NCBI GenBank assembly: GCA_050177605.1
Contig: JBFXGX010000016.1
Location: 1-39,538 of the forward strand
Source: Candidatus Izemoplasmatales bacterium
Lineage (GTDB): Bacteria > Bacillota_I > Bacilli_A > Izemoplasmatales > Hujiaoplasmataceae
Direction: 5' to 3'
DNA length: 39,538 bases
The translations under genes were made by a program, and so were the position numbers. This document shows, piece after piece, positions 12,501 to 39,538 of the stretch (its first letter is position 1; every line of letters starts with the position of its first letter). A model generated the notes under the pieces. The model saw nothing but the letters and a program-made list of their open reading frames with translations. It did not search any database and was not told where the DNA came from.

Positions 12501-13250
12501 TTAAAATGTTAAATAATTGCCTTCCATCTCTAGTTTCGATGCAGCTTCTTCATCAACCATCACAGTAATATCCGGATGAAGTTGTAATATCGCTGCTGGA
12601 ACTTTTCCTCCAACTTCACCATAAGCCATTTGATAAAGGGCATCTGCTTTTGATTTTCCAGAAGCAATCATCAAAATCTTTTTAGAGTACATGATGTTTT
12701 TGATTCCCATCGTAATTGCGTATTGAGGAACTTCTTCTAGGCTATTAAAAAATCGAGCATTATCAATTCTTGTTTGTTCATCGAGTTTGACAATAAACGT
12801 TTGATTCCCTAAGAAACTACCAGGTTCATTAAATCCGATGTGACCATTTTGACCAATCCCTAGAATTTGTAAGTCTCGTTGATTACCAAACATTTTATCA
12901 TTGTATTCTTTGGCAAGTTTTTCCATATTATTTAAATCATTACTTGGGATATTAATATTCTTTGGATTAATATCAATATGATCAAATAAATATTTATGCA
13001 TAAAAGAATAGTAACTTTGAGGATGATCTTTATCGAGGCCAACATATTCATCTAAATTGAATGTCTTAACATCTTTAAAAGAGATAAACCCATCTTCATA
13101 AGCTCTAATTAAGTTTTTATATAATCCTATCGGCGAAGTACCAGTCGCCAGTCCTAAAATAAGGTCTGGTTTTTTGGCCATTTCCTTAATGACGAAAGCT
13201 GCCGCAGCTTTCGAAATCGCATCATAATCTTTGTATTTGAAAATTTGCAT
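12501..13250 (-). CDS. nagB: Glucosamine-6-phosphate deaminase
   Basis: LGLATGTSP, TFNLDEYVGL, LGIGQNGHIGFNEPG and AITMGI motifs. Confidence 0.95.
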   Translation of the reverse strand: MQIFKYKDYDAISKAAAAFVIKEMAKKPDLILGLATGTSPIGLYKNLIRAYEDGFISFKDVKTFNLDEYVGLDKDHPQSYYSFMHKYLFDHIDINPKNINIPSNDLNNMEKLAKEYNDKMFGNQRDLQILGIGQNGHIGFNEPGSFLGNQTFIVKLDEQTRIDNARFFNSLEEVPQYAITMGIKNIMYSKKILMIASGKSKADALYQMAYGEVGGKVPAAILQLHPDITVMVDEEAASKLEMEGNYLTF

Positions 13251-13269
13251 TCCTTTTCCCTCTATTCTT

Positions 13270-14169
13270 TTATACGCTTTTCAAACTCTCTCTTATGTTA
13301 CCATGATTTTCATCTAATATCTCTTTGATTTTATCAGAATCTGCAACTTTCGAAAGGATCGCGAAAATTGCATATTTCACAGAGTTATATTTTTCTAGAT
13401 ATAGTTCTGCAGTCGAACCATCTACCCCAGTCACTTCCATGACAATTTTTCTTGCCCGAGAAACAAGCTTATTATTGGTCATTTGAACATCAACCATAAG
13501 ATTTTCATAAACCTTGCCAAGTTTAATCATTGAAGCGGTAGAAATCATGTTTAAAATCATTTTTTGTGCTGTGCCTGATTTCATTCTTGTCGAACCAGTA
13601 AGCGGTTCTGCGCCAGTAATCGCTTCAATAGGATAGTCTGCGACTTGTGCTATTTTTGAATTATGGCTTGTCGTAATACACCCTGTAATCGCATGAACCG
13701 ATTTAGCATATTCAATCGCACCAATGGCGAAAGGTGTAACACCACTTGCGGCAATACCAATCACAACATCCTTACTTGTTAAGTGATACTCTTTTAAAGC
13801 TACAGCAGCTTCTTCTTTCGAATCTTCTGCGCCTTCAATCGAAAAGCGAAGCGCATGATCTCCACCAGCAATAATGCCAATGACTAATCCAGAATCAACA
13901 CCGAAGGTTGGTGGTACTTCACTCGCGTCAAGTACACCTAGTCTTCCACTTGTCCCAGCACCAACATAAAAGAGTCTTCCACCATTTCTAAAAGCATCGG
14001 TGACTACATCAACGACCTTTGCAATCTGATTAATTGACTTTTCAACAGCAAAAGGAACTTGTTTATCTTCGTTGTTGATGAGACGAAGAATCTCACAAGT
14101 TGAAACAATGTCAATATTTTTCGTATTATGATTTCTTTTCTCTGTCGAAATTTTACTTAGATCTACCAT
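13270..14169 (-). CDS. murQ: N-acetylmuramic acid 6-phosphate etherase
   Basis: TEKRN, GAGTSGRLGVLDASEVPPTFG, EGAED and GSTRMKSGTAQK motifs. Start moved to ATG 14169 after SD AAAGGAG. Confidence 0.95.
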   Translation of the reverse strand: MVDLSKISTEKRNHNTKNIDIVSTCEILRLINNEDKQVPFAVEKSINQIAKVVDVVTDAFRNGGRLFYVGAGTSGRLGVLDASEVPPTFGVDSGLVIGIIAGGDHALRFSIEGAEDSKEEAAVALKEYHLTSKDVVIGIAASGVTPFAIGAIEYAKSVHAITGCITTSHNSKIAQVADYPIEAITGAEPLTGSTRMKSGTAQKMILNMISTASMIKLGKVYENLMVDVQMTNNKLVSRARKIVMEVTGVDGSTAELYLEKYNSVKYAIFAILSKVADSDKIKEILDENHGNIRESLKSV

Positions 14170-15080
14170 AATGTATTCTCCTTTTTCTGTAACATAGCGA
14201 TATAACAAGCGCCAAAGACTGGCTCAAGATTCACTTCATCAAACGCTAATGGGTATCCAAGCTTAGAAATTTCTTGGATAAGTGTTTCTTTGACAAGAGG
14301 AGCGTTTAGTAAGAAACTTCCTCTAAGTCCGACAAGTACTACTTGATCTTTTCCTAAACGCCTAAGTGCGTTCTGCGCTTGCAGAGCAAGCAGTAATCCT
14401 TCTTGTTTTAATAGTTTTTGAATATATTTATCTTTGAGGGCTAACGTACTTAAGTATTTAGAGAGTCCTGCGATTTCATCTTTATGATGATGATAGACGA
14501 AATCTTTGATCTCTGTATATTCTTTTAACCCGAGATGTTTTAAGACCTTTTTAGAAGAACTTCGGATTGTTTTTTCTCCTTCATATTGGCTAATCATATT
14601 TTTTAAGAAAGTAATCGCAAGATGATAGCCTGAGCCTTCATCCCCCAGTAGTGCTCCATATCCACCGATCATATTCATCGTTCCATCTTTTTCTGTGAAT
14701 AATACGCTACCTGTCCCAGCAAGGATCATTAATGTCGGCAAATCCTGATTTTTTTTAACAGAATATAGACCTAAATAAGCATCGTTTTCGATAAATACTT
14801 TCGCTCCATAACTTTTTTCTAAATTTTCTTGGAGTTCGTGTTTCCGAAGAAAGGACATCACACCAGATAAGCCAAGGATGATTGCTTCAATTTCTTCTTT
14901 ATCGTGACGCTGTAGAAGTAAATCGATTGCCTCAACCACATGTTCGATTGATAATGCAGGATTGACGTTAAAGTTACAAAAACCGCTGAAAGCTTCATCA
15001 ACTTTATTTTTATTTTGGTCAAATAGGGCGGCTTGTGTTTTCGTCCCACCACCATCGACGCCAATGATGTATTTTTTCAT
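14163..15080 (-). CDS. BadF/BadG/BcrA/BcrD-family amino-sugar kinase (MurK-like MurNAc/GlcNAc kinase)
   Basis: GVDGGGTKT, IENDA, ILAGTGS and GGYGALLGDEGSGY motifs; lies between nagZ and murQ. Confidence 0.85.
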   Translation of the reverse strand: MKKYIIGVDGGGTKTQAALFDQNKNKVDEAFSGFCNFNVNPALSIEHVVEAIDLLLQRHDKEEIEAIILGLSGVMSFLRKHELQENLEKSYGAKVFIENDAYLGLYSVKKNQDLPTLMILAGTGSVLFTEKDGTMNMIGGYGALLGDEGSGYHLAITFLKNMISQYEGEKTIRSSSKKVLKHLGLKEYTEIKDFVYHHHKDEIAGLSKYLSTLALKDKYIQKLLKQEGLLLALQAQNALRRLGKDQVVLVGLRGSFLLNAPLVKETLIQEISKLGYPLAFDEVNLEPVFGACYIAMLQKKENTLW

Positions 15081-16636
15081 AGCACCATTCCTTTATCTTT
15101 TGGGAGAATTGTTCCTTCCAAATATTCTTTAAAAACTTCAAGTGAGTTTGGTGTGTACTCATAAAACTCTACCACATTTTTTAGTTTAGGTAAAAAATGA
15201 AGGTCATATGGATTTCTCATTGTAAAGACAAATAAATTACCTTGTTCATTCAGCTTTTCCATTAAATGATATTGGCTTGGATATTGATTCGGATTATAGG
15301 ATGCGAAGATAATTTGTTCATATTCTTTTGAAACTCTTAGTACTTTTTTCATTTCTTCTTTTGAGAGTGCAACACTCACAACCATCGATTCAAATGGATG
15401 GCCAATGCCTTTTACCACATCATCAATCGTTTGAAATCCACCTGCTTCATCCGCAATTGTCGTCGCTGCAGGACTAGATGAAATCACGAGCGTTGAGCGA
15501 GAAGGATGAATACATTCACCTTTCACGAGAGTGAAAGCACTCTTCACAACACTTAAGTTAAATGATTTCACTTCTTTGTTATAGAATGCTTTTTCCTTTT
15601 TTTCAAAAGGTGTTGTTAAATCAACTTGTAGATCTTGTTTATACTTTAGAATTCTTTTTACATGCTGATCAACCATCGCTTCATCAATTGTCCCTGCAAG
15701 AATACTCTCTTTTAAATACGTAATTGCTTTGATTTGAAGTTCTTGGTGGTGGCTCACCATCCCAAGATCGGCCCCAGCAAGAAGTGCCATACTAAACCCT
15801 TTTTCTGTTGTGTAATGTTTCTGAATAGCTTTCATTTCAAGACAATCAGTCATCACGAGTCCATCGTATTTCATATCTTCTCTTAATAGTCCAGTTATGC
15901 AGTTCTTTGATAAGGATGTTGGTAGACCATTTTCAGTTAACTCAGGAAAATTAATATGAGCAATCATCAGAGAATGGATCCCTTCTTGAATCGCTTTTTG
16001 AAAAGGAATTAACTCGAAATTCTTTAATTCTTTCACTGTTTTATGGATAACTGGTAGTGAAAGATGAGAATCTGTATGGGTATCCCCATGTCCTGGAAAG
16101 TGTTTGCCACAAGCATAGATACTTTCTTCGAGTCCTCTGACGTAAGGAATACCAAAATCAACGACTTTTTTTGGAGTATCGCCAAAACTTCTGACGCCGA
16201 TGACTGGATTAAGAGGATTATTATTGATATCGAGCGTTGGTGCTAAGTTCAAATTAATCCCTAAGTTCTTTAAAAACTCTCCCATATACTTACCACTAAA
16301 ATAAGCGTTATCGATTTTCTCTGAGGATGTAATCGTCATCGCGCCAGGGAAAAACGGTCCGTCTCCCTTGATTCTCGTGACCATGCCACCTTCTTGATCA
16401 ATCGTAATGAATAAGGGAATGCCAATATGGTATAAAGCCAGTTTTTGTAAGTTTTGGTTGAGTTCATAGAGTTGATGTAAATCACGAACATTTCGTTGAA
16501 ACAAGATCACATTCCCAACTTTATATTTTTGAATCATCTCGATGGCATGATCATTTACCTCTAATGCATCAAAACCAAAGATGAGACATTGTCCAATTTT
16601 TTCATCTAAACTTAAATCTTCAAATCGTTTATTCAT
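15077..16636 (-). CDS. nagZ: GH3 beta-N-acetylglucosaminidase, no signal peptide
   Basis: IDQEGGMVTRI, the NagZ signature KHFPGHGDTHTDSH and nucleophile region MTDCLEM; two-domain length. Confidence 0.93.
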   Translation of the reverse strand: MNKRFEDLSLDEKIGQCLIFGFDALEVNDHAIEMIQKYKVGNVILFQRNVRDLHQLYELNQNLQKLALYHIGIPLFITIDQEGGMVTRIKGDGPFFPGAMTITSSEKIDNAYFSGKYMGEFLKNLGINLNLAPTLDINNNPLNPVIGVRSFGDTPKKVVDFGIPYVRGLEESIYACGKHFPGHGDTHTDSHLSLPVIHKTVKELKNFELIPFQKAIQEGIHSLMIAHINFPELTENGLPTSLSKNCITGLLREDMKYDGLVMTDCLEMKAIQKHYTTEKGFSMALLAGADLGMVSHHQELQIKAITYLKESILAGTIDEAMVDQHVKRILKYKQDLQVDLTTPFEKKEKAFYNKEVKSFNLSVVKSAFTLVKGECIHPSRSTLVISSSPAATTIADEAGGFQTIDDVVKGIGHPFESMVVSVALSKEEMKKVLRVSKEYEQIIFASYNPNQYPSQYHLMEKLNEQGNLFVFTMRNPYDLHFLPKLKNVVEFYEYTPNSLEVFKEYLEGTILPKDKGMVL

Positions 16637-17771
16637 ATAGATGATATCTCCTTTTTAAATCACTGAAGACCTCTGTGTCCATATGCATATTCATCAGTAA
16701 TTCTCTTACTGGAATTTGATTTTCTCTTAAAAGATTATTACCCGTTAATAGATCGATAAAGGGATGCCCACCTTCTCTAAAAGGCGGAATATAATCAAAT
16801 TCCTTATGTGTTTTTCTAATGTAATCAAATAATAAATATCCTGTTTTTACAGGTTGGAACGAAGCTTCATTCGTTACAACAACCTCGAGTCCATGGCAAA
16901 GTGTATTTTGATGTTTTGAGAATGTTGGAGTAAAGTAGGTTTCTCTGAATAAGACGCCTGTGAGTTTCAATCCATTCATATAGCATACAACGTCCCGGTT
17001 GTTTAAATAAGGACTGCCAATAAAGTGGAATGGCTTGGTTGTTCCTCTCCCTTCAGAAAGGTTCGTACCTTCAAACAAACAAGTAGCGAGGAAAACCAGC
17101 GCAGTTTCAGGCGTTGGAATATTTGGACTCGGAAGAACCCAAGGAAGCCCCGTTTCTCTAAAACTCATTTTCCGCTCATAGTTCTCCATCGGAAGGATAT
17201 GAATATCCGCATGGATCTCAAATTCATTGTTAAAGAGTAATGCCAGTTCTCCAATCGTTAATCCATATCGTTGTGGAATAGAATAATATCCTACAAAAGA
17301 ACGATAATCAAGTTGTAATAAATTTCCTTCCACAAGATCCGCTCCCACAGGATTAGGATGGTCAATGATAATCATTTGTTTCCCGTATTCTTTACAGGAT
17401 TCCATGAGATAAGACATCGAATATAAATAAGTATAAAAACGAGCCCCCACATCAGCGATATCAAAAACAAGCACATCAAATAAATCCATCATTTCTTTAC
17501 TTGGATGGCGAGTCGCCCCATATAAAGAATAAACATGGAGATTGGTTGCTTCATCCAAATAACTTTCAGCATGAACACCGGCTTGTAAGTCACCTCTCAC
17601 ACCATGTTCAGGTGCAAATAATGCGACGAGATTCACTTTTTCTTTTAGGATATCAATAGTCGAAATTAAGGCTGAATTAACACCAGTAGGATTGGTCATC
17701 AGGCCAACTCTCTTTCCTTCAAACAAAGGAAGATAATCTTCAAAATGATCCATAGCTAAGAGGACTTTCAT
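16629..17771 (-). CDS. namZ: Exo-beta-N-acetylmuramidase NamZ (DUF1343 family), no signal peptide
   Basis: GKRVGLMTNPTG, LFAPEHGVRG, YSLYG, DIADVGARFYTY, PSPNIP and EGTNLSEGRGTTKPF motifs. Start placed at ATG 17771 (ATGA overlap with the upstream gene). Confidence 0.92.
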   Translation of the reverse strand: MKVLLAMDHFEDYLPLFEGKRVGLMTNPTGVNSALISTIDILKEKVNLVALFAPEHGVRGDLQAGVHAESYLDEATNLHVYSLYGATRHPSKEMMDLFDVLVFDIADVGARFYTYLYSMSYLMESCKEYGKQMIIIDHPNPVGADLVEGNLLQLDYRSFVGYYSIPQRYGLTIGELALLFNNEFEIHADIHILPMENYERKMSFRETGLPWVLPSPNIPTPETALVFLATCLFEGTNLSEGRGTTKPFHFIGSPYLNNRDVVCYMNGLKLTGVLFRETYFTPTFSKHQNTLCHGLEVVVTNEASFQPVKTGYLLFDYIRKTHKEFDYIPPFREGGHPFIDLLTGNNLLRENQIPVRELLMNMHMDTEVFSDLKRRYHLYE

Positions 17772-18403
17772 AGGTTCACGCTTTCTGCAAAATGAGTAAT
17801 TTTTCTCGTTAATAGGACAATGATTGACCAAGGACCAGTTAGTCCAACAAGAAGGAATACCATCGATGTCAATCCATTCGGGTAAAACATCAATAGGACG
17901 GGTAAAAGGGTGACAAAGAATAATACGAATGTGGTAATAAAGTATTTACCAGCTAAATAAAAAGCAAATTTAATCGTTTTAAGAAAGGTTGTTTTTTCCT
18001 TCATATCGACAATTAACGTATAGTAAATCGTCACTGCGAACCAAATCGCAATCAGAGACATCGATACATAGTACCCAATACTCATAAATAAAGGTGAAGA
18101 AACAGAAATACTTTCTCGGTAATAAAGAGTGTTTAAATATCCGAGTAAAAAGATAAAGAGTGTTAAGAGCGTAAATCCTAACTTCCGTAAGAAATTACGT
18201 TTGAATGAGACCCAGAAACCTTTAAAAAGTTCTGGGCTCTCATTATGTAAATACTTCTTTAACATTGAAAAACCAGCACTGATACTAGCAAAACTTGTGA
18301 CAATAGGAATACAGAAAAGTATCATCAAAAGATTGAGGACAACAAGTCTGATTATCCAATCAGCAATCATATTCAGTTTGGAAAAGAATGGTTTTTCAAA
18401 CAT
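17768..18403 (-). CDS. YesL/DUF624 family membrane protein (sugar ABC accessory)
   Basis: ADWIIRLVVLNLLMILFCIPIVT and FKGFWVSFKRNF pattern; ~5 TM helices; follows the permeases. Confidence 0.8.
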   Translation of the reverse strand: MFEKPFFSKLNMIADWIIRLVVLNLLMILFCIPIVTSFASISAGFSMLKKYLHNESPELFKGFWVSFKRNFLRKLGFTLLTLFIFLLGYLNTLYYRESISVSSPLFMSIGYYVSMSLIAIWFAVTIYYTLIVDMKEKTTFLKTIKFAFYLAGKYFITTFVLFFVTLLPVLLMFYPNGLTSMVFLLVGLTGPWSIIVLLTRKITHFAESVNL

Positions 18404-18412
18404 AAGAAACTC

Positions 18413-19399
18413 CTATCCAACAATACCGGTACGTTCAATCGATTCAACGAATTGTTTTTGAACAAATAAATACATAATTAATAGTGGCAACATCATCAGT
18501 AGCGCAGCTACATTACTAATGAGCGCTAAGAATAATGGGTTTTCCCAAACACTTTGACCAATTAGATCAAGTCCACCCGTATAGAATAAAGCTTGATACA
18601 TTCCTTCTGCCGCATTAATCAACTGCATTGTAAGCAAAGGGAACGCTTCTGTTGAAACATCAAAGATGGCGACATAATAAGCATCATTCCATTGCCACAC
18701 GAATGCGAATAAAGCGACCGTGACAAGAGCACCTCTTGCATTCGGTAACATGATATTCCAAAAAGTTCGAAAGACGCTCGCACCATCAATCTGTGCGGAT
18801 TCGTCCAACTCTTTGGGAAGACCTCGAAAGAACTGTCTGAAGATATAAATGAAGATTCCACTCCGAATTCCCATTCCGAGGAAACTCATAATATAGATAC
18901 TGATTTCTTTACCTATCAGTCCAACTTCTCTAAAATAAAGGAACTGGGCAAGCGATAAAGCTTGCGGTGGTGTAATAATTGTAATGATGACTAAAACGAA
19001 TAAGATATTACTTCCTCTAAATTTCAATCTCGAAAAAGCATAACCTGCAAGAGCAGTTGAGAAGATTTGTAATATCATTGAAATAAAACTAATCTTAAAG
19101 GTATCAAGGAGTGCTTTCCAATAATCTAAAACGACCATAGCGATTTTGATATTTTCTAAACTCCAAACCTCAGGAATCCAAACAACCGCTGGATTATTTA
19201 CATCTCCAGGAGCACGGAGTGCCATAGAGATTTGTTGGATCGTTGGAAAAAGGATTACGAAACATAATCCAAAGAGGAATATTCCTCTGAGAAGATTCAT
19301 TGTGAATGTCGAAATCTTCCGTTTCCACACAAACGCTGTTCTAGGATTTTTAAAATATTTATCGATACGATGGTAGAGATTCAACAGTTTATTCTTCAT
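18413..19399 (-). CDS. Carbohydrate ABC transporter permease (MalG-like)
   Basis: AGYAFSRLKFRG, EAA loop LDESAQIDGAS, FVWQWND. Start at ATG 19399 after GGAGG. Confidence 0.92.
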   Translation of the reverse strand: MKNKLLNLYHRIDKYFKNPRTAFVWKRKISTFTMNLLRGIFLFGLCFVILFPTIQQISMALRAPGDVNNPAVVWIPEVWSLENIKIAMVVLDYWKALLDTFKISFISMILQIFSTALAGYAFSRLKFRGSNILFVLVIITIITPPQALSLAQFLYFREVGLIGKEISIYIMSFLGMGIRSGIFIYIFRQFFRGLPKELDESAQIDGASVFRTFWNIMLPNARGALVTVALFAFVWQWNDAYYVAIFDVSTEAFPLLTMQLINAAEGMYQALFYTGGLDLIGQSVWENPLFLALISNVAALLMMLPLLIMYLFVQKQFVESIERTGIVG

Positions 19400-20330
19400 A
19401 ATGAGAACCTCCGATATGGAATGCTTTCGCAAGAAGCGCGAGCACTAATAAGATAAATACAATCGTCGTCACATAAATCCATGCCATCGCAGCACTTTGA
19501 CCCCACTGTGTCGACTTTCCAAGTTCAGACGAAATAATCGTGCTGACCGAACTCGTGAGGAAGGTATCGACAAGTGCATAAACTGTCACTGTTATCATAT
19601 GCGGACTTACGTTCGGCAATGTAATTAACCAAAACATTTCATAAGACGTCGCTCCTTCAATTTTTGCGGCCTCATACAAATGCTTAGGCACGGATTGGAT
19701 GGAAGCGAGGAATAACAAAATCGGAACGCCTGCGAGAGACAAAATGTCATAAATACGATCGATGAGTCCGACGATAAAAGTAATGAGCCATGGCATAATT
19801 CCTGTTTGTAATAAATAAAACTCTAAATCAAACACGGGTCCGATTCCTTGTTGCTCAAGGATTTGCGCAATTGCATCCCCTCCGCCTAGAGCTGAAGCGA
19901 CGGCGGCGCTATTGAGGATGACTGGAATAAAGAAGATAGCACGAACAATTGCTCTTCCTCTAAACTTCATATTGAGTAAGACAGCAATAAATAGACTAAA
20001 GATTAATAGTACAGGAATATTGATTAAAGCGTCCACCGTAGTATTAATCAGTTCAATTCGAAAACTTGATGTCGTTGTCACATGTTCATTGATTGCATAA
20101 ATATAATTTTGAATTCCGACAAAGGTAGAAACAATTCCATTTGGGGTTGGTTCTAATGTAAAGAAACTATAGTAGAAACTTCTTACAAACGGAATAAAGA
20201 AGAAAATGAGAAATCCTAAAAACCAAGGTGTTAAAAAGATAATTGCCCATAAAAGCTTTTGTTTTTTATATCCCTCAACGCCTTTTCCACCAAGTGTCTT
20301 TTTTGATTTTAACGTATCAGCATTAGCCAT
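19389..20330 (-). CDS. Carbohydrate ABC transporter permease (MalF-like)
   Basis: FVGIQNY, RAIFFIPVI and EAA loop LYEAAKIEGAT. Start at ATG 20330 after GGAGGTGA. Confidence 0.92.
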   Translation of the reverse strand: MANADTLKSKKTLGGKGVEGYKKQKLLWAIIFLTPWFLGFLIFFFIPFVRSFYYSFFTLEPTPNGIVSTFVGIQNYIYAINEHVTTTSSFRIELINTTVDALINIPVLLIFSLFIAVLLNMKFRGRAIVRAIFFIPVILNSAAVASALGGGDAIAQILEQQGIGPVFDLEFYLLQTGIMPWLITFIVGLIDRIYDILSLAGVPILLFLASIQSVPKHLYEAAKIEGATSYEMFWLITLPNVSPHMITVTVYALVDTFLTSSVSTIISSELGKSTQWGQSAAMAWIYVTTIVFILLVLALLAKAFHIGGSHYEE

Positions 20331-20331
20331 T

Positions 20332-25890: not shown

Positions 25891-25891
25891 C

Positions 25892-31501: not shown

Positions 31502-31551
31502 CTTTTCTCTCCTAATAAAATTATATTTATTTCTTTTTAACTCTTAAGTCT

Positions 31552-31579
31552 ATTATACACAATAAATCTTTAGATTTAT
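31552..31579 (-). promoter_or_regulatory. Putative promoter (-10 TATAAT) and palindromic operator upstream of the transporter operon
   Basis: TATAAT on the minus strand at 31557-31552. The perfect inverted repeat ATAAATCT-TT-AGATTTAT at 31562-31579 occupies the spacer/-35 position. No consensus -35 is visible. Confidence 0.55.
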
Positions 31580-31645
31580 AGGCTTGAAAGGGCACTTTTT
31601 TCATACTTTCAATAATATAAAAATTTTTTCAGTGGTTTGAAAGCG

Positions 31646-31677
31646 AAAAAAAAACCAGTTTATTGCTAAACTGGTTT
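31646..31677 (-). terminator. Intrinsic terminator after the 846-aa surface protein gene
   Basis: AAACCAGTTTA-TTGC-TAAACTGGTTT hairpin with a U9 tract on the minus strand. Confidence 0.85.
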
Positions 31678-31684: not shown

Positions 31685-34225
31685 TTAGTGACGTTTTCTA
31701 AGTAAATAGAATGCTACACCAAGAATACTAACTGAAGCAAAGCTTGTGAATCCTAAGATTGATGCGGAAGCACCACATCCTGTTGTAGGTTCTTGCGCTG
31801 CTAAAGCTGCATCGATTAATGCTTGAACTTCTGCTTCATTTAAGAAAGCTCCGCCATCGATTAATGTTTGGATTTGTTCTGTTGTAACAACACCAGCATC
31901 GATTAATGCTTGAATTTCAGTAGCAGTTAAAGTTTGATCATCAAACATTGCTTGAATTTCAGCGTCTGATAAGAAGTTTCCAGCGTCAATTAAATCTTGA
32001 ACATCTGTACTAGTTAATGAATCATCAGCAACAACATCAACGTCAAATGTAACAACTGCACTGTTTCCAGTTAAGTCTTCAACAGTTACTTCTACTGTAT
32101 AAGTTCCAGGAGTACCAACAAGTAAACCACCATTATCACTTACATAAACTGCTAAATCATCTTGTGAATCAAAGTTATCAAATGCAACAACATTCGCTAA
32201 AATTGCCGCGTTAGCTGATGTATAATCACCAACTGTAATTGCATAATTATCGTTGACAACTAATAAATTAGGAGCTGTAGTATCATCTACAGTTAAAGTA
32301 TAAGTAGCTTCTGTAACGATATCATAATCAAATACTGCTTGTTGTGTTGGATCATAACTAACAGGAGCATCATATGCTAATGCGTCTGCTGCAGTATAAG
32401 GAGCACCAGTACTAACACCTACTAATAAAATGAATCCGCCATCTTCTAGTGTTACGTTGGTTAACCAATCAGTAAACATTCCAGAAGCGTCTGCAGGTGA
32501 ATTAATGCCATTAACATCAACTAATTCCCAAGTACGACGGTTGATTGTACGGATAATATTTCCATCGCCGCCAACTTCAAGAATCATACCAGCACTACTC
32601 CAAGAGAAAGTAGTTGTTTTTAAGTTTGTAACATCTGTAAAGAGAATAACTTGCGTAGCCCAGTTTGTTGATGAAGTATTTGTTAATCCATTCCATGTAA
32701 ATGTAGTTCCATCTAATACATAAGTTGGATCAATACCATCAAAATGAACATGATGAGTGAATGATAAGTTAATATCATAAACACCTGGTAATGGATAATA
32801 GAAATTGAATCCTTCAGGTAAAGTAACTTGAATAGAATCAGTTAAATCATTACCATAACCATCATTTGCAGTAATACCTTCAAGTAAGTTTACATATTCA
32901 CCTTCGTTGATATATCTGTTTTCTACGCCAGCAAATGCAGGAGGCATAACGCCGATAACGATATCAACTTCTTGTGTTGTAACATCACCAGATGGAGTTG
33001 TTACTGAATAAACAGCTTTGTAACCAGCACCGAAATCAGAAGAATCGATGACAGAAACAGCAGCACTTGGTGTATAAACTTGATTTACATCATCCCATAC
33101 AAAGTTAATTGTTTCTAAAACTTCACCATCTTGGCTAATTGCAACGCTATAATCTAAATGTTCAGTAGCATTGATAATATCGCCTGTAGTGTCATCAAAC
33201 ATATTGATCCATGTAGCAGAAACAGTATTAGGAAGATCAAATGTTCCATTGTAATCAACAACAACATTAACACCAGCTGTCACTGCGTCATCATCCATAG
33301 CAGTAATTCCAGCGAACACTGCAGGTTGATCAACATAAGACATTGTCATTGCGGCAACACCATCTGTAATCATTGCTGTAGGTAATGAAAGAATATAAGA
33401 AGTTGTTTTAGGATTTAATGTTCCACGGTCATTTGTACCAAAACTTACAACTGTCCATCCAGCAGGAACATAAACGTTATTTGGATCATCTGCAATAATT
33501 GTAGACCATTTTGTTTTGTCAAGTTCAACTGTAGTATCAACATCAGCGTTTGTCCATTTTAAGTATCCGATTGGTTCAACAACATATCCATCAGTATCAG
33601 TATCGCTTAAAGCCATACGGATATAAGTATATCTTGTTAATCCGTCTGAAGAAGGATTTCCAGAAGTAATCGTTCCAGCAGTTACTTCAGCGACATAGGC
33701 ATCAATTTCAGTTTGAGTAGCTAAGCGCCAGTCTGGAGTTTCAGTCGTACCATCATTATGAATATAATATTGGCTGACATGGTCTTCAAACATAGCAAGT
33801 GTGCCAGTTTCATCAAAATATGCATATTTACGATGTACAACATCTGTGATATCAGTACGAGCGTTAGCTGTTAAGATATCAATTTCAGAATCTGTATCGT
33901 TGATAAACATCACTGCGAATGCATTGTATTTTAATCCAGCAAGTTCATTGTCGTCTACCCATCCATCACTGTTGTCATCGATAGATTCATGACCATATCT
34001 TACGGATCCACCAATCACATAATAAGTATGTCCATAATAATTGAAACTCCAATGAGAATTCCCGACTTTTGTATAAGTACAATCAGATGTAGCTAATAAA
34101 CAAGCCTCTTGATCGTAAGGATACAAGTCGATGTTTGTTTCTTCTGCAGCTTGAACAAAATTAGAGAATGCTAAGCCGAGGAAGAATGTAAAGAATAAAA
34201 CAAAAATCGATAATAGTTTCTTCAT
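31685..34225 (-). CDS. Large secreted, C-terminally anchored acidic surface protein with Ig-like (DUF5011-like) domains, function unknown
   Basis: Signal peptide ending VQA-AEE; Ig-like segments (LLEGITANDGYGNDLT..PGVYDI and ANVVAFDNFD..PGTYTVEVTVED); helical repeats; EPTTGC + TM + RKRH. Confidence 0.8.
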   Translation of the reverse strand: MKKLLSIFVLFFTFFLGLAFSNFVQAAEETNIDLYPYDQEACLLATSDCTYTKVGNSHWSFNYYGHTYYVIGGSVRYGHESIDDNSDGWVDDNELAGLKYNAFAVMFINDTDSEIDILTANARTDITDVVHRKYAYFDETGTLAMFEDHVSQYYIHNDGTTETPDWRLATQTEIDAYVAEVTAGTITSGNPSSDGLTRYTYIRMALSDTDTDGYVVEPIGYLKWTNADVDTTVELDKTKWSTIIADDPNNVYVPAGWTVVSFGTNDRGTLNPKTTSYILSLPTAMITDGVAAMTMSYVDQPAVFAGITAMDDDAVTAGVNVVVDYNGTFDLPNTVSATWINMFDDTTGDIINATEHLDYSVAISQDGEVLETINFVWDDVNQVYTPSAAVSVIDSSDFGAGYKAVYSVTTPSGDVTTQEVDIVIGVMPPAFAGVENRYINEGEYVNLLEGITANDGYGNDLTDSIQVTLPEGFNFYYPLPGVYDINLSFTHHVHFDGIDPTYVLDGTTFTWNGLTNTSSTNWATQVILFTDVTNLKTTTFSWSSAGMILEVGGDGNIIRTINRRTWELVDVNGINSPADASGMFTDWLTNVTLEDGGFILLVGVSTGAPYTAADALAYDAPVSYDPTQQAVFDYDIVTEATYTLTVDDTTAPNLLVVNDNYAITVGDYTSANAAILANVVAFDNFDSQDDLAVYVSDNGGLLVGTPGTYTVEVTVEDLTGNSAVVTFDVDVVADDSLTSTDVQDLIDAGNFLSDAEIQAMFDDQTLTATEIQALIDAGVVTTEQIQTLIDGGAFLNEAEVQALIDAALAAQEPTTGCGASASILGFTSFASVSILGVAFYLLRKRH

Positions 34226-34262: not shown

Positions 34263-34291
34263 ATTGTACAACCCTCTGAAAACGCTGTCAA
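34263..34291 (-). promoter_or_regulatory. Sigma-A promoter overlapped by a cre/LacI-family operator
   Basis: Minus strand TTGACA (34291-34286), 17-bp spacer, TACAAT (34268-34263). TGAAAACGCTGTCA (34277-34290) matches the cre consensus TGWNANCGNTNWCA. Confidence 0.75.
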
Positions 34292-34368
34292 TTCTCACTG
34301 GTAGAATTTCAGCGATTAAAGCCATTCTTACGTTTTTAGAAACTTTTTTTCATAAAACCATTCTATTT

Positions 34369-37300
34369 TTATCTAACAGAGCCTGGAATGTAGGTATAGA
34401 AAGTTCGGCTCTGTGTCACACTATTTTCAGTTACAGTAATTGTATAACTAACGGTGAGTGCTCTTTCAGGAATTTTAATGATTCGCCCTGTATTATCTAG
34501 GTATTCTGGATTGTTTGAAGTAAATGTAATGACTGCATTCTTGTGATTTGTTTGCATATAGTATTCGGATGCGACAAACTCTTCAAACAACCAAGTTAAT
34601 CCTGCTTCTCTTAATGTATGAGGACAATTTTTACCTGAAAAATCGACATGGAATTTTTGGTTTTCTTCTGGGAGACTATATTTTTCTAGTAAATAGGCCG
34701 CAAGCTTCGCCGTACGTTGCCACGTGCGATACATATCTCCATCTTGATTAATAGCCATTTCAATACCGATACCATTACGATTTCCACCGCCTAAATAAGT
34801 TCCCCCAAGCGTAGGAAGGGTCGAGCCGTCACCGGCATGATATCCTCTTTCAATTTCAGGTAAGTGTTGATAGATATTGACGCTATCTACAGTGAAATGC
34901 CATGAAACCCAAAGTTCGGTTCCAGCGATCGCATTATTGTATAAATAGTTTGCGTGTGCTAGTGCATTACTGCCTGTCGCAGTACTTGCTGTATCATGAA
35001 CGACGATCCAATAAACATTATACGGATTGTACTGTGTGACACCTTCAGGAAGTGGATCCATTGGTTCTCCAGGTCTTATTCCACTAGAAACAGGGACTAA
35101 TTTTGAAGTGTTAATTGGAATATCTCCAAAGTAATAACGAGAAACACTTTCAGCGCGAGTATCAAAATAGTTATATTCAAATCCATAAGCTACCCATTCA
35201 TGAATCGTTGAATATGCGACTTGTTGGGTTGTTAAATAATCAAGTAAATTATTTTCACTGTCTAAAGCGCCGTGAACATAGACAGTATAGCTAACATTGA
35301 CGGATGGATCACTATCTAGACTAGCTGTAAAGGTAACGAGTCCTTCTCCATACGTTGTAACGAAGCCTTGAGAATTAATATCCGCAACCATTGGTGCGCT
35401 ACTTACGATACTCGATGATTCTCCTTCAATTGTATAAGGGAATAATAAGGTAGAAAGGGTGAAAGTATCTCCTACTTCTATCGCACTGGAAACACTATCT
35501 GTAACAATTTCAATTCCAGGTGTGGTAATAATTGCAAAATCAAGTTGTGTACGAATCGTTGAAACTTGTGCACTTCGAATTTGAATGTATACAGCACCAC
35601 TTGATAATGGTGTGATTGTTCCGCTAGTATTGATGGTAACCAGACTAGGATTTCCTGTAATAAAGCGAACCGAAGCATCACTTAATTCATACGGAAGAAT
35701 TTCATAAGTAAATGTATAGGTTTCTCCAATCATAATCTCATCAATTGGATTCGTAATCGTAATAATGATTGGCAATAGAGGATTATAACTTGTTTCAGTA
35801 GGCATCGTCGATGAAGGGTAATTCCCTTTCAAATAATATGCATCAACATGAACAAACTGACCGTAATCAAGTTCTTCTGTTCCCCAGTAATTTAAAGTGA
35901 AATCAAAAGTGGATCCTGTATTTGCGATGACTGCACTAGCATAATTCGTCACTTGATTAAAACGTGCAATCTTTGTAAATTCTTGTTCTGTGGAGGAATA
36001 ACTCATATCAACAATAAAAGGATTAATAACTTGATCGATGACATTCCAATAGATTTTCAATACATCCGTAGAAGCAATATTCTCTTTTGCGGTTAGCGAC
36101 ATGGCTGTCGACATATTGGAAAACGAATTCGATTGAATAATAGTCTGTTCTCCGCCTAGATATTGAAGACAAATTGCGCCACTAGTAATTGTGTTAAATG
36201 TATTGTCAATGATTACTGTATTTAAAGCACTATTTAAATTGATAAAAAAGTTATTTGAAGCGGTTATTTGACTTGCATTGTTCTCTGAAAATGTAAAGTT
36301 AGAAATCGCGGTAGAGTTCGTAATGCTCGCATTTCCACTAAATAGCATGTTTGTAATTGTGACATCATTTGCATTAATCGTAAGCGTTCCTTCAAAGGAA
36401 GAAGTTTCACTAATACCTTCGATTGTAATTCCGTCTAAATTCACCGTCACATTTTCGATATAGTGGCCGCTTTCAACTTTCACTAAAGTCCCCTCAGTTG
36501 CGACACCTAAAGCAGAAGATAAGGTACTAAATAATTGCTCACCAAATTGAAGTTCTAGTCCATCCAAATCATACACATCACCAGATTGTAATGTACTATC
36601 GACAACCAAAATATTCATAACAGTCACATTAAACGTATCCGCGATGGTATCATCTAGCACTGATTTAGCAATAATCGTAGCGTTTCCTTCTCCTACTGCT
36701 TGTACATTCCCTTGTTCATCCACAGTAAGAATTGTTTCATCTGAACTTTCCCAAGTGACCACGCTGTAAGCTCCTACTGGAGAAGCGATGACTTCAAACA
36801 TAGCACTCATTCCCTTGATCAAAGAACTTGAACCATTGATTGATATTTCTTCAGTATATTTATATACCGTCACCGTGACTTCTTCTTGTAAGCTTGTATC
36901 GTAGGTTGAAGTTACTCTTACGATGGTTTCTCCAAATCCAATGGCAGTAAGTTGTCCATCTTCATCGACGGTCACAACATTCGTATTTCCAGATAAGAAA
37001 GTCAGTCCATCATTCGATGTAACTTGAATCAGTTCTGTGTCCCCGACGACTAACGTGTAGTCCTCTTTCTCAAAAGAAATGGTCACTAATTTTCTGACAT
37101 TCACGGTAATACTGATGGTTTTTGATTCATCATAGGTTGATGTTACATTGATCGTTGTGGACCCAACGCCAAGCGCTGTAATCAGTCCATCACTCGATAC
37201 TGAACAGATTTCACTGTTTTGAACATCATAACGTACACCATCATTACTTGTGATGACCAGTTGATTTGTTTCTTGTTCTGTTAGATTCACAATTAACGCA

Positions 37301-37650
37301 TTACTGGATAATGTAATTTGTTTGCGAACTTCTACGGTCACGTTTTGCATAACAGAATCATCATATTTAGAAGTAATTGTAACCACAACACTTCCTTCAG
37401 CTAATCCGGTAATATATCCTGTATCTGATAGAGAAATAATATTCTCTACATTGACAGAATATTCCAGCCCAACTGGGTCATTACTTGTCACAACAAGTTG
37501 ATAACTTTCACCTTCAATTACGGTGACCGAGTTGGTATTTACATTCACAACAATATCTTCATTCGTTGTCACAGTCGTTGTATCGTTATTGCATGCCACA
37601 ATAGAAAAACTCAACATAATTAACGTAACGAAGAATAATCCTTTTTTCAT
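34369..37650 (-). CDS. Lipoprotein N-acetylmuramoyl-L-alanine amidase (Amidase_2) on a stalk of Big_2 Ig domains and a beta-helix
   Basis: Lipobox IVAC; about six Big_2-type repeats (V..DG.ITA.G.G...I.V.S); beta-helix-like central region. The catalytic domain has IVVHDTA, SWHFTVD, YHAGDG, GIGIEMA and FHVDFSGKNCP (His/His/Cys zinc ligands, catalytic Glu). Confidence 0.9.
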   Translation of the reverse strand: MKKGLFFVTLIMLSFSIVACNNDTTTVTTNEDIVVNVNTNSVTVIEGESYQLVVTSNDPVGLEYSVNVENIISLSDTGYITGLAEGSVVVTITSKYDDSVMQNVTVEVRKQITLSSNALIVNLTEQETNQLVITSNDGVRYDVQNSEICSVSSDGLITALGVGSTTINVTSTYDESKTISITVNVRKLVTISFEKEDYTLVVGDTELIQVTSNDGLTFLSGNTNVVTVDEDGQLTAIGFGETIVRVTSTYDTSLQEEVTVTVYKYTEEISINGSSSLIKGMSAMFEVIASPVGAYSVVTWESSDETILTVDEQGNVQAVGEGNATIIAKSVLDDTIADTFNVTVMNILVVDSTLQSGDVYDLDGLELQFGEQLFSTLSSALGVATEGTLVKVESGHYIENVTVNLDGITIEGISETSSFEGTLTINANDVTITNMLFSGNASITNSTAISNFTFSENNASQITASNNFFINLNSALNTVIIDNTFNTITSGAICLQYLGGEQTIIQSNSFSNMSTAMSLTAKENIASTDVLKIYWNVIDQVINPFIVDMSYSSTEQEFTKIARFNQVTNYASAVIANTGSTFDFTLNYWGTEELDYGQFVHVDAYYLKGNYPSSTMPTETSYNPLLPIIITITNPIDEIMIGETYTFTYEILPYELSDASVRFITGNPSLVTINTSGTITPLSSGAVYIQIRSAQVSTIRTQLDFAIITTPGIEIVTDSVSSAIEVGDTFTLSTLLFPYTIEGESSSIVSSAPMVADINSQGFVTTYGEGLVTFTASLDSDPSVNVSYTVYVHGALDSENNLLDYLTTQQVAYSTIHEWVAYGFEYNYFDTRAESVSRYYFGDIPINTSKLVPVSSGIRPGEPMDPLPEGVTQYNPYNVYWIVVHDTASTATGSNALAHANYLYNNAIAGTELWVSWHFTVDSVNIYQHLPEIERGYHAGDGSTLPTLGGTYLGGGNRNGIGIEMAINQDGDMYRTWQRTAKLAAYLLEKYSLPEENQKFHVDFSGKNCPHTLREAGLTWLFEEFVASEYYMQTNHKNAVITFTSNNPEYLDNTGRIIKIPERALTVSYTITVTENSVTQSRTFYTYIPGSVR

Positions 37651-38696
37651 AACTCCTTAACCCCCATAGAACTTAATATTATATCTGCAATCTTTCCACG
37701 ATAGGAAAAGATTCGATTTCTTTCTCTTTTTGGATGAACCGCATTACTTAACATAACAAATCCGATGCCATGGAATGTATCCATCCATAGGTTACATCCT
37801 GTAAACCCAGTATGAAGAATCGTATGGTCAAAATCAACGAGTGTGCCCGCACTGCTATTGATTGAAGGTTTATCCCAACCATAGGATCTGATTTTTGTTC
37901 CTTCAGACAAATCAATGATTCGAGGTGGAAATAAGGAATCCACCGTTTCTTTTTTTAATATCTTTTCATCATTTTTTAAAATCGAAAAAATGAATTTTGA
38001 TAAGTCACCTACTGTGGAAAACATTCCCGCATGCCCTGCAACGCCGTTCATCGCAAATGATTTTTCATCATGTACTTTTCCTCTTAAAATTCCACTGTAC
38101 ACATGATCTACACGCATCTCCGTAGGGCAAGTTCTTTCACTATCAGGACTAAAACTGGTATCTTTCATTCCTAGCGGATCGTAAATGTATTCTTTAGCGA
38201 CAAGATCAAGTGGCTTGTTAGTCACTGTTTCAATCACCCATCCTAGTAAAATATACCCGATATCAGAATAGATGACTTTCGATCCTGTTGGATAAATCAA
38301 AGGTGCTTGTTTCACCTTGAATAAAACATCTTCTTTTGTTTTTAAATCCGCTGCTCTTTGGATATCTGCGGGTAAGCCACTGGAGTGTGTCAACAAATGT
38401 TTGATTTCAATATCAAGATGTTGAAACCAAGGTAATATAGAAGATACTTTTGTATCTAGTTTTAAAAATTGTAATTCAATTAACTTCATGATTAAAGTAG
38501 TCGTTGTTACGACTTTGGTTAAAGAGGCACAATCATAGATTTCATTGCCCTCTAATTTTTGAAGTTCAGGCACAAGTTCTTTATAACCAATGTAATTGGA
38601 ATCGATTGTTTTATCTACATATACAATCGCGTAGCTTGCGCCAGGAAAATCACCGTTTCGCACGCCTTCACTTAACAATTCGTCAATTTCTTTCAC
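37647..38696 (-). CDS. Beta-lactamase-fold serine hydrolase, AmiE-like muropeptide amidase/peptidase, no signal peptide
   Basis: SxxK (CASLTK), LLTHSSGL, YSD, GKVHDEKS, GVAGHAGMFST and HTGFTG motifs; GTG start; context with nagZ/namZ/murQ. Confidence 0.8.
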   Translation of the reverse strand: MKEIDELLSEGVRNGDFPGASYAIVYVDKTIDSNYIGYKELVPELQKLEGNEIYDCASLTKVVTTTTLIMKLIELQFLKLDTKVSSILPWFQHLDIEIKHLLTHSSGLPADIQRAADLKTKEDVLFKVKQAPLIYPTGSKVIYSDIGYILLGWVIETVTNKPLDLVAKEYIYDPLGMKDTSFSPDSERTCPTEMRVDHVYSGILRGKVHDEKSFAMNGVAGHAGMFSTVGDLSKFIFSILKNDEKILKKETVDSLFPPRIIDLSEGTKIRSYGWDKPSINSSAGTLVDFDHTILHTGFTGCNLWMDTFHGIGFVMLSNAVHPKRERNRIFSYRGKIADIILSSMGVKEL

Positions 38697-39538
38697 TAGT
38701 TTTTCTTCCTCATCATAAAAGATGCGCCGATGGAGACAAGCCCGAAGGTTAATAAATTAATCGCATTAAACCAAGTACATCCTGTTTTTGGTTCTTCAAC
38801 AATCACACAAGCCCCATCAACTCTCTCATAGCCACTTTCACATGGATTATCGATGCAATTTCCATCCACATACGTTTGATCTATTTGGCAAACAGAGACA
38901 CAGTCTCCATCTACGTAGGTTTCTCCAATCTGACACACAGAGACACAATCGCCATTCAAGTACTCTTCGCCAATTTCACAGACTGAGACACAATCTCCAT
39001 CTACGTAGGTTTCTCCGATTTGACACACAGAGACACAATCACCATTCAAGTATTCCTCGCCGATTTCACAGACTGAGACACAATCTCCATCTACGTAGGT
39101 TTCTCCAATCTGACACACTGAAACACATTCACCGTTCACATTTTCTTCGCCGATTTCACAGGAAAGTTGTTCTTTCTCAATGAGACTTTCCCAAGGGAAA
39201 GTCACATATTCTGGCCAGTAATAATCACTTAATCTCTCTAAAAACTGAACGACTTCAGTATCTGTACTGTTTAAAGTTCGATAACTAAAGAATGAACTTC
39301 CTATAATAGCGTCGTACTGAGAAATATATCGTAACTGTTCAGGTAATTCATTCACATCTGTCCAAGTATCATCATCATATCTGTAAAAACCATGACCAAT
39401 GATTAAATCAACGTTATAGGTATCACATAAATCTGCCCACCAGTCTACTAAGTCTGCGAATGGTGCACTCGAATGATCAAATTGCCAATAGAGTTGCGGA
39501 AGAATATAATCAACCCATCCTTCCATCACCCATTTTCT
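38696..39538 (-). CDS. GHL10 (YngK/DigH-like) glycoside hydrolase, 3' part, with Cys-rich repeat stalk and C-terminal anchor
   Basis: The frame is open to the window end. KWVMEGWVDYILPQLYW, LVDWW, LIIGHGFYR and GSSFFS match the end of the GHL10 TIM barrel; EPKTGC + TM + RKKN. Confidence 0.8.
   Translation of the reverse strand, partial: RKWVMEGWVDYILPQLYWQFDHSSAPFADLVDWWADLCDTYNVDLIIGHGFYRYDDDTWTDVNELPEQLRYISQYDAIIGSSFFSYRTLNSTDTEVVQFLERLSDYYWPEYVTFPWESLIEKEQLSCEIGEENVNGECVSVCQIGETYVDGDCVSVCEIGEEYLNGDCVSVCQIGETYVDGDCVSVCEIGEEYLNGDCVSVCQIGETYVDGDCVSVCQIDQTYVDGNCIDNPCESGYERVDGACVIVEEPKTGCTWFNAINLLTFGLVSIGASFMMRKKN
38807..39160 (-). repeat. Coding tandem repeat: 45-bp unit (C-x10-C-VSV), ~8 copies, with 90-bp higher-order periodicity
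   Basis: CTACGTAGGTTTCTCC recurs at 38911, 39001 and 39091. Protein units alternate CQIGETYVDGDCVSV and CEIGEEYLNGDCVSV. Confidence 0.95.

Follow-up and report, generated by a model that had tools for sequence, protein, structure and literature searches.

A candidate peptidoglycan-utilisation locus in a wall-less Izemoplasmatales bacterium, probably directed at the walls of other bacteria

The 39,538-nucleotide stretch of DNA analysed here (the window) is the entire contig C16 of a draft Candidatus Izemoplasmatales genome (G000; 1.94 Mb, 66 contigs, 89% complete), and from position 12501 to its end it encodes proteins related to enzymes and transporters of peptidoglycan breakdown. We consider it likely that these genes form a catabolic locus by which a wall-less Izemoplasmatales bacterium utilises peptidoglycan made by other bacteria. 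A previous interpretation made from the letters alone (the sequence-only reading) had proposed an outside-to-inside pipeline of this kind, and the predicted topology of the proteins fits it. Its idea that foreign peptidoglycan serves as food is likewise supported by inference: no wall-synthesis genes were found in the host, and NagB and the LctBCD-type genes are catabolic. The presence of NagB together with a locus-linked LctBCD-type lactate dehydrogenase strengthens the catabolic interpretation.

Organisation of the locus

The window part of the locus comprises 19 co-oriented open reading frames (ORFs) on the minus strand, between positions 12501 and 39538. Neighbouring frames overlap by up to 46 bases or are separated by up to 183, and 16 of the 18 junctions show an overlap or a gap of at most 19 bases. 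Genes were assigned with Pfam and NCBIfam profiles (equivalog matches being judged against the curated NCBIfam cut-offs), and topology was assessed by hydropathy and motif inspection. The ORF list and the profiles agree with most of the earlier assignments and with the description of 19 co-oriented, mostly overlapping or abutting genes. Five proteins are newly named here: a DUF5696 protein (858 amino acids), a Yip1-domain protein, an NHL/TPR protein, a DUF624/MusI-like protein, and an 846-residue protein that we call unk846. TGA is a stop codon in this genome. The features, in the direction of the genes, are as follows (SBP, solute-binding protein; TM, transmembrane; scores in bits).

38696-39538, minus strand: C-terminal 280 residues of a double GHL10 protein that starts on contig C33; Cys-rich region, PKTGC, helix and RKKN C-terminus
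37647-38696, minus strand: beta-lactamase-fold protein, AmiE/PBP4B-like (PF00144, 170.3)
34369-37650, minus strand: surface lipoprotein of 1093 residues with Big_2 and C-terminal Amidase_2 domains; lipobox IVAC at residue 17
31685-34225, minus strand: unk846, surface protein with signal peptide, PxTGC, helix and basic C-terminus
31520-31677, minus strand: terminator-like hairpin (31677-31652), then promoter-like site (31547-31520), both as consensus matches
29810-31501, minus strand: lipoprotein SBP of 563 residues with Ig-like domain; lipobox LVGC at residue 17
26817-29744, minus strand: giant membrane-anchored SBP of 975 residues; N-terminal TM helix, SBP_bac_1 at 579-869, residues 1-560 without family match
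25027-26824, minus strand: first permease pair, perm2a (25892-26824) and perm2b (25027-25899), from Pfam and NCBIfam
23542-25017, minus strand: NHL-repeat/TPR protein with signal peptide and C-terminal membrane helix
22911-23552, minus strand: Yip1-domain five-helix membrane protein (Pfam, topology)
20332-22908, minus strand: DUF5696 protein (PF18952, 496.9); TM helix at 1-31 as N-terminal membrane anchor
18413-20339, minus strand: second permease pair, perm1a (19389-20339) and perm1b (18413-19432); BPD_transp_1, UgpA/UgpE- and MalF/MalG-like
17768-18403, minus strand: DUF624/MusI-like five-helix membrane protein (Pfam, NCBIfam, topology)
16629-17831, minus strand: NamZ exo-beta-N-acetylmuramidase (NamZ_N 271.8, cut-off 26.9; NamZ_C 143.9, cut-off 25)
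15077-16636, minus strand: NagZ-like beta-N-acetylhexosaminidase of glycoside hydrolase family 3 (GH3; Glyco_hydro_3, 277.7)
14163-15080, minus strand: BadF-type sugar kinase, MurK-like (BcrAD_BadFG)
13270-14208, minus strand: MurQ, N-acetylmuramic acid (MurNAc)-6-phosphate etherase (TIGR00274 373.9, cut-off 302; NF003915 398.1, cut-off 168; SIS domains)
12501-13250, minus strand: NagB, glucosamine-6-phosphate deaminase, the last gene (TIGR00502 288.9, cut-off 236.9; Glucosamine_iso)
12472-12493, both strands: bidirectional terminator-like hairpin, 9-pair stem with a T run on each strand, closing the locus after nagB

The locus continues beyond the window. The end of C16 overlaps the end of contig C33 exactly over 127 bases, and the same genes lie in the same order across this junction in the related genomes G006 (on a 342-kb contig), G039 and G319. 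This conserved order indicates that the join is real, and the whole locus therefore spans about 42 kb and about 28 genes. The locus of at least 27 kb proposed earlier is real, its extent being larger than the window revealed. C33 contributes the following.

C33 12838-16188: remainder of the double GHL10 protein (two GHL10 domains, 402.9, cut-off 27.9), about 1355 residues after joining
C33, upstream of the double GHL10 gene: cytoplasmic GHL10 protein of 399 residues (224.5, cut-off 27.9)
C33 9824-11632: NAD-dependent glycosidase of family GH4 and a second BadF-type kinase, separate genes in relatives
C33 3189-4031: PIG-L deacetylase
C33 1777-3192: protein of 471 residues without family match
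C33: AnmK (NF007142 437, cut-off 435; NF007148 421.1, cut-off 387; above the equivalog cut-off)
C33: MurR/RpiR regulator
C33: EtfB-EtfA-FAD-oxidase trio of the LctBCD lactate dehydrogenase type, beside the regulator

Judged by consensus matches, the hairpin and promoter-like site downstream of unk846 may split the locus, within the window, into two or more transcription units, and the MurR/RpiR regulator presumably controls the locus. The cre-like site of the sequence-only reading was not recovered: the cre consensus (WTGNAANCGNWNNCW) has no match in the window or on C33.

Cytoplasmic enzymes and the nature of the substrate

No signal peptide was predicted for the AmiE-like protein, the 399-residue GHL10 protein, NamZ, the NagZ-like GH3 enzyme, the two kinases, AnmK, the GH4 glycosidase, MurQ or NagB. 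NamZ, the NagZ-like enzyme and the AmiE-like protein are assigned to the cytoplasm for this reason. Some of these proteins are named at family level. The AmiE-like protein has its SxxK motif as SLTK at S58, and its best NCBIfam model (PBP4B) scores 140.8, below the cut-off of 385; the NagZ-like enzyme reaches 187.6 with equivalog NF003740, below the cut-off of 207. For the MurK-like kinase the NCBIfam NagK model gives 74.6 against a cut-off of 370, and the best match in the Protein Data Bank (PDB) is 8zo3, a kinase of MurNAc and N-acetylglucosamine (GlcNAc), over the full length (E = 3.3e-24). On C33 the second BadF-type kinase and the GH4 glycosidase appear fused, an artefact that arises where the ORF crosses a scaffold gap of 100 N (33 X in the translation); the two are separate genes in relatives, and both are kept inside the locus in G001, G006 and G039.

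Residues 27-382 of the cytoplasmic GHL10 protein match the catalytic domain of Cwp19 (5oq2, E = 8.2e-85). The GHL10 domain of Cwp19 has been shown experimentally to act as a lytic transglycosylase, its products ending in 1,6-anhydro-MurNAc (PMC6016235). A GHL10 enzyme of the Cwp19 type would produce such ends here too, which would account, circumstantially, for the presence of AnmK. Downstream in the pathway, MurQ yields GlcNAc-6-phosphate and D-lactate, and the LctBCD-type genes next to the regulator would provide a route from the lactate released by MurQ to pyruvate. Their identity is supported by full-length matches to the solved complex, of LctD to 7qh2_C (E = 7.4e-189) and of LctC to 7qh2_A (E = 1.8e-123), with EtfB adjacent.

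A canonical NagA above cut-off was found neither in G000 nor in five further genomes with the locus, the closed Acholeplasma laidlawii genome included. We therefore propose the locus-linked PIG-L deacetylase as a candidate non-orthologous replacement that probably carries out GlcNAc-6-phosphate deacetylation, as judged from its family and position. The PIG-L gene is situated upstream of the Etf genes in two genomes, G000 and G039, and in A. laidlawii it follows nagB directly. It accompanies the locus together with the gene for the 471-residue protein, in A. laidlawii at G041:C1 298348-300556.

These enzymes also bear on whether the substrate might be some other amino-sugar polymer (chitin, host glycans or the cell's own capsule), with the match to peptidoglycan enzymes being misleading. 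NagZ, NagB and PIG-L deacetylases also serve the catabolism of chitin and GlcNAc, and DUF5696 and unk846 have no assigned substrate. However, MurQ, NamZ, AnmK, the Amidase_2 domain, the Cwp19-like GHL10 domains and the lactate dehydrogenase are tied to MurNAc, which to our knowledge occurs only in peptidoglycan, and no chitinase family was found by Pfam among the locus genes in the window and on C33. We consider a substrate other than peptidoglycan very unlikely.

Surface proteins

The double GHL10 protein and unk846 are predicted to lie at the cell surface, each with a signal peptide and a C-terminus in which a PxTGC motif precedes a hydrophobic helix and basic residues. Hydropathy and motifs also place the Amidase_2 lipoprotein, both SBPs, DUF5696 and the NHL/TPR protein at the surface. 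The Amidase_2 domain of the large lipoprotein scores 69.9 (cut-off 26) and matches XlyA (3rdr, E = 9.4e-23), with the His/His/Cys set conserved in the alignment; we take these residues to be the metal ligands of amidases of the XlyA/T7-lysozyme type. In unk846, an N-terminal domain (about residues 30-300) is followed by tandem Ig-like domains (301-733) and a helical repeat stalk. It matches no Pfam or NCBIfam family, and its N-terminal domain has no sequence match in the PDB and no usable match in the ESM Atlas. The AlphaFold2 model (pLDDT 82.4) gives Foldseek and VIA-align matches confined to the Ig-like middle part. There are 181 relatives of unk846, none informatively named, one of them in Mariniplasma anaerobium.

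The C-terminal signature (P-x-T-G-C, a hydrophobic helix and a basic tail of RKKN, RKRH or RKKY) lies at 31685-31810 and 38696-38820 of the window, and at about 53280-53413 and about 57300-57434 of contig C6. Among 2026 frames of at least 100 amino acids in G000, it occurs in only four credible proteins. Each of them is a surface protein encoded in a glycan locus, with two in the peptidoglycan locus and two in the alpha-glucan locus. In its three-part layout the C-terminus resembles a sorting signal, but a search of the G000 genome gave no match to sortase or to exosortase/archaeosortase families.

The surface enzymes are central to a further question, whether the locus scavenges only soluble muropeptides and anhydro-muropeptides shed by growing neighbours, without attack on polymeric sacculi. 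AnmK and an oligosaccharide importer would suit such turnover products; the two walled relatives examined carry importer and cytoplasmic enzymes but not the large surface enzymes, and A. laidlawii is without the Amidase_2 lipoprotein. Against this, G000, G001, G006, G039 and G319 all encode the surface Amidase_2 lipoprotein and the tethered double GHL10 protein, which are of polymer-acting types, and the giant SBP and the polysaccharide-type paralogues of the importer suggest that long chains are handled. Scavenging restricted to soluble fragments thus appears unlikely, and we favour a locus that acts on the polymer.

The importer and DUF5696

The importer, an eight-gene module, resembles CUT1-type ATP-binding cassette (ABC) transporters; the locus encodes two SBPs and four permeases, and the ATPase would be encoded elsewhere in the genome. 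It is probably of the MsmX/UgpC type, a candidate for which lies on contig C2 (UgpC subfamily 487.9, cut-off 432).

The module (giant SBP, two permeases, NHL/TPR, Yip1, DUF5696 and two permeases) is present in four copies in G000, and the 2-Mb genome thus has four loci resembling polysaccharide-utilisation loci (PULs), counting the one described here. The copy on C6 (about 60-70.5 kb) adjoins pullulanase-type domains (alpha-glucan); the copy on C9 (about 48.9-59.4 kb) adjoins GH94, GH144-like and GH3 genes and a LacI regulator (a beta-glucan); and the copy on C2 (about 83.5-94.5 kb) adjoins GH30, GH3 and GH16 genes (laminarin-type beta-1,3-glucan), with the MsmX/UgpC-type ATPase nearby. In the copies on C2 and C9 the NHL/TPR and Yip1 parts are joined in a single gap-free ORF, a fusion that argues for their acting together. 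An apparent Yip1-DUF5696 fusion on C6 is an artefact, the ORF crossing a scaffold N gap (34 X).

The AlphaFold2 model of DUF5696 (pLDDT 84.8, pTM 0.85) has a predicted fold like those of GH129, GH101 and GH36 enzymes. Its Foldseek match is 5opq (E = 6.4e-29, TM-scores 0.53/0.66), and GH129 NagBb, GH101 and GH36 structures also match. Among the columns invariant in orthologues and paralogues, D318 and D344 lie in the beta-sandwich part, and acidic residues in the barrel are few. We found no publication on DUF5696 in the open-access literature.

A host without a wall

The sequence-only reading had supposed an Izemoplasmatales or Acholeplasmatales host without a wall, and hence a foreign substrate. 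The affiliation agrees with the closest related loci, which are titled Candidatus Izemoplasmatales. A check for murA-G, mraY and penicillin-binding proteins found no peptidoglycan-synthesis genes at family thresholds, and the idea of a foreign substrate withstood it. Specifically, MraY, transpeptidase, FtsW/RodA and the GT51 transglycosylase have no match in the 89%-complete G000 at these thresholds; the single Mur-ligase-domain match is FolC, and the only MurA-like match is AroA. Transpeptidase scored above cut-off in one of 40 relatives of the host's order. This carrier, G030 (family f3, with scores of 264 and 80 bits), may be a walled member or a contaminated bin. One report describes a cultured Izemoplasma isolate without a wall by electron microscopy (PMC8397711), and a comparative study infers that peptidoglycan has been lost entirely in Izemoplasmatales, and also within Acholeplasmatales (PMC10868615). 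Judged from an 89%-complete draft, the host is a wall-less Izemoplasmatales bacterium.

If a cryptic or reduced wall persisted, with its synthesis genes in the unassembled 11% of the genome, the locus could recycle the cell's own peptidoglycan. The incompleteness of the draft and the homologous core loci of walled relatives speak for this explanation. Yet G000 has none of six independent synthesis markers, transpeptidase was found in none of 22 genomes of the same family (f1) and none of 23 of the sister family (f2), closed genomes included, and MraY is missing from all five locus-bearing genomes searched, the complete A. laidlawii among them. With the cultured isolate also lacking a wall by electron microscopy, we hold the recycling of an own wall to be highly improbable.

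It is also conceivable that C16 was mis-binned and belongs to a walled organism. Its G+C content of 0.36 is slightly above the 0.34 typical of the bin, and the segment 26001-39538 correlates less well with the bin in tetranucleotide composition (0.937); C16 as a whole reaches r = 0.98 against the remainder of the bin, inside the bin range of 0.965-0.997, and its composition fits the bin. However, G006 has the same locus in its 342-kb contig, as do two closed chromosomes that lack wall-synthesis markers (G319 and A. laidlawii 8195), 40 of 42 related loci carry titles of the wall-less clade or of broad Bacilli, Bacillota or Firmicutes, and three importer paralogues are found in this bin on further large contigs. 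An origin of C16 in a walled organism is extremely unlikely, and because the locus recurs in G006, G319 and A. laidlawii 8195, mis-binning would pose no problem for the assignment of the locus to wall-less bacteria.

Distribution and evolution of the locus

With a DUF5696 alignment as query, 42 related loci were found in named genomes. By title, the closest are in Candidatus Izemoplasmatales metagenome-assembled genomes (MAGs), with Mariniplasma, Acholeplasmataceae and Acholeplasma next, among them the complete chromosome of A. laidlawii 8195, where the locus lies at about 266-301 kb. The order from DUF5696 to NamZ and neighbouring genes is the same in 31 of the 42 loci, and the other 11 end before the position of NamZ. 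This recurrence, which answers a call for a synteny search in the sequence-only reading, argues that the arrangement is not due to chance. The two loci with other titles, L046 (Halieaceae) and L052 (Candidatus Falkowbacteria), are probably mis-binned or mislabelled MAG contigs. In A. laidlawii 8195 the NHL/TPR gene matches in two pieces (G041:C1 285017-286804), possibly by a frameshift or a divergent insert.

We also searched one sample of 400 genomes of the class for four markers (one or two genomes remaining unscored per search). DUF5696 was above cut-off in 145/399 genomes, NamZ in 76/400, transpeptidase in 200/400 and unk846 in 27/399. Transpeptidase was absent or nearly so from the host's family f1 (0/22), its sister f2 (0/23), f15 (1/30) and f20 (0/7), and present in the walled families f7 (12/12) and f19 (22/23 of the genomes sampled). 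NamZ lies a few kilobases downstream of DUF5696 both in the transpeptidase-free families and in walled f7. An f7 example, G125, has the importer, NamZ, NagZ, a kinase, AnmK, MurQ, MurR, one GHL10 gene, an AmiE-like gene and LctBCD; within 55 kb it has no large Amidase_2 lipoprotein, double GHL10 protein or full unk846. These outer genes are likewise absent within 40 kb in the f19 example G065. The sequence-only reading had implied that the whole architecture is restricted to wall-less hosts, which does not hold for the importer and the cytoplasmic core. Because walled relatives share this core, it is older than the loss of the wall.

The outer part behaves differently. Its marker, unk846, occurs in exactly the NamZ-positive genomes of f1, f2, f15 and f20, and in none of the 49 NamZ-positive genomes of f7, f12, f17 and f19. 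The outer part is restricted to the wall-less Izemoplasma-Acholeplasma clade, by this marker and by the two walled loci inspected. Since the carrier families are kin, the pattern reflects few evolutionary events and is no statistical association.

Variation within the clade was also apparent. DUF5696 of the same-genus G001 is 55% identical to that of the host, against 56-58% in relatives of other families and 64-69% in some of the named MAG loci. That G001 is no closer in its locus genes than other families is a hint that the locus has moved laterally inside the clade. Another genome of the genus has a different, smaller cluster (L026, G002:C9 1-19325; 27-55% identity) with AnmK, a kinase, NagZ, NamZ, two SBP-like genes, NagB, a second NagZ, one permease pair and DUF5696. 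From this difference we conclude that variant peptidoglycan loci exist within one genus.

Proposed pathway and its weight

From the gene content, similarities and predicted topology described above, we infer the following activities, substrates and order of action. Outside the cell, the Amidase_2 lipoprotein would strip stem peptides and the membrane-tethered, Cwp19-related double GHL10 protein would cut the glycan strands, both by family and predicted topology, with unk846, the clade-specific surface protein, possibly assisting in some manner. Two surface binding proteins would capture the glycan fragments, and the four-permease ABC importer with its NHL/TPR, Yip1 and DUF5696 proteins would take them in, powered by the MsmX/UgpC-type ATPase. 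Inside, the cytoplasmic GHL10 enzyme, the AmiE-like amidase, NamZ and NagZ may reduce the fragments to MurNAc, anhydro-MurNAc and GlcNAc, which AnmK and the MurK-like kinases would phosphorylate. MurQ would then split MurNAc-6-phosphate into GlcNAc-6-phosphate and D-lactate. The lactate would be oxidised by the LctBCD-type complex; GlcNAc-6-phosphate would probably be deacetylated by the locus-linked PIG-L enzyme, and NagB would send the amino sugar into glycolysis with release of ammonia.

Several points weigh against this interpretation. No ABC ATPase is encoded in the locus, and with NagA missing, one step of the pathway rests on a guess (PIG-L). DUF5696 is likened to glycosidases by its predicted fold, and unk846 is without an assigned function. 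The host genome is a draft, 89% complete. The occurrence of the locus in the host's order is patchy, with NamZ in 3/22 f1 and 2/23 f2 genomes (5/45), and in A. laidlawii the large Amidase_2 lipoprotein and the Lct genes are absent within the 70 kb examined. The presence of the core in walled f7 and f19 means that it may have evolved for the recycling of a self wall. Finally, the use of foreign peptidoglycan as food is a proposal drawn from sequence. On balance, we regard a catabolic locus for the peptidoglycan of other bacteria as the probable interpretation.

A bolder version can be entertained as a speculation that we find rather doubtful. It holds that the Izemoplasma-Acholeplasma clade consists of dedicated wall eaters; that the loss of the wall made it safe to display lytic proteins on the own surface (the amidase, the double GHL10 protein and unk846); that living as well as dead neighbours are attacked; that the importer is of an undescribed class of glycan importers; and that PxTGC is a new anchoring or sorting signal.

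Other genes in the window

The remainder of the window carries genes outside the locus.

7840-12417, plus strand: 1525-residue protein, probably at the surface, combining Listeria-Bacteroides repeats with a pectate-lyase-like adhesive domain; gene convergent with the locus
3555-7383, plus strand: ABC ATPase fused to a TMEM164-family membrane domain, then a putative ATP-binding cassette protein
825-1073, minus strand: Phd/YefM-type antitoxin

Significance

Peptidoglycan is a major pool of bacterial necromass. If correct, our interpretation would give free-living Mollicute-like bacteria a defined niche as consumers of the walls of other bacteria, with a salvage core common to walled relatives that was kept after wall loss and extended by surface lytic enzymes. 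In a study by RNA stable-isotope probing, Acholeplasma was the predominant early assimilator of 13C-labelled dead Escherichia coli cells, and the available part of the text gives no mechanism and does not mention peptidoglycan (PMC4628116). The locus could provide the mechanism. These ideas are testable in culturable relatives, given the locus in A. laidlawii and unk846 in Mariniplasma anaerobium. The analysis also draws attention to unstudied components, namely the DUF5696 importer module, the unk846 family and the PIG-L deacetylase that may replace NagA.

Comparison with known systems

In the open-access literature, supplements aside, we came across no account of a locus for peptidoglycan catabolism in either Izemoplasmatales or Acholeplasmatales. 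The nearest parallel in gene content is the muropeptide and MurNAc cluster of Bacillus subtilis (murQ-murR-murP-amiE-nagZ-namZ), with NamZ, NagZ, an AmiE-like protein, MurQ and MurR/RpiR clustered in both. In B. subtilis, NagZ, AmiE and NamZ are secreted and MurNAc is taken up through the MurP phosphotransferase system (PTS). In contrast, the NagZ, AmiE-like and NamZ proteins here have no signal peptide, uptake would be through a four-permease ABC importer, and no PTS gene was found in the locus by Pfam and NCBIfam in the window and on C33. The earlier equation of NagZ, NamZ, AmiE and MurQ with the B. subtilis salvage set thus stands for the enzyme families (NamZ itself having been defined in that species; PMC8054146) and fails for the compartment and for PTS uptake. 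In addition, surface lytic enzymes, AnmK, NagB and LctBCD are added, and the host has no wall to recycle.

Among wall-less bacteria, Spiroplasma catabolises MurNAc, necessarily from other bacteria, via murP and murQ (PMC3762197). That system consists of a monosaccharide PTS and the etherase only, without depolymerases, oligosaccharide importer, AnmK, NamZ or lactate module. Among walled bacteria, Tannerella forsythia depends on the peptidoglycan fragments of its neighbours, has MurK and MurQ, and builds its own wall from the fragments, an anabolic sink for which no counterpart (no Mur ligases, no MraY) exists here.

The GHL10 catalytic domain is common to the locus and to Cwp19 of Clostridioides difficile. 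DigH of E. coli also belongs to GHL10 and degrades glycans that amidases have already stripped of their peptides, which is also the sequence of steps proposed here. Cwp19 and DigH remodel or autolyse the wall of their producer, whereas the present host has none, and three GHL10 domains are found here, two in one membrane-tethered protein and one in the cytoplasm. In overall plan, the locus is like the Sus-like PULs of Bacteroidota and the ABC loci of Gram-positive bacteria, with surface enzymes, binding proteins, an importer, cytoplasmic exo-enzymes and a regulator, and with paralogous loci serving different glycans. It differs in having no outer membrane and no SusC/D pair, in a core of DUF5696, Yip1, NHL-TPR, four permeases and a giant SBP, and in its peptidoglycan target. 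Overall, the enzyme families are those of the known recycling pathways of B. subtilis and E. coli, and it is the compartment, the uptake, the surface enzymes, the lactate module and the host that set this locus apart.

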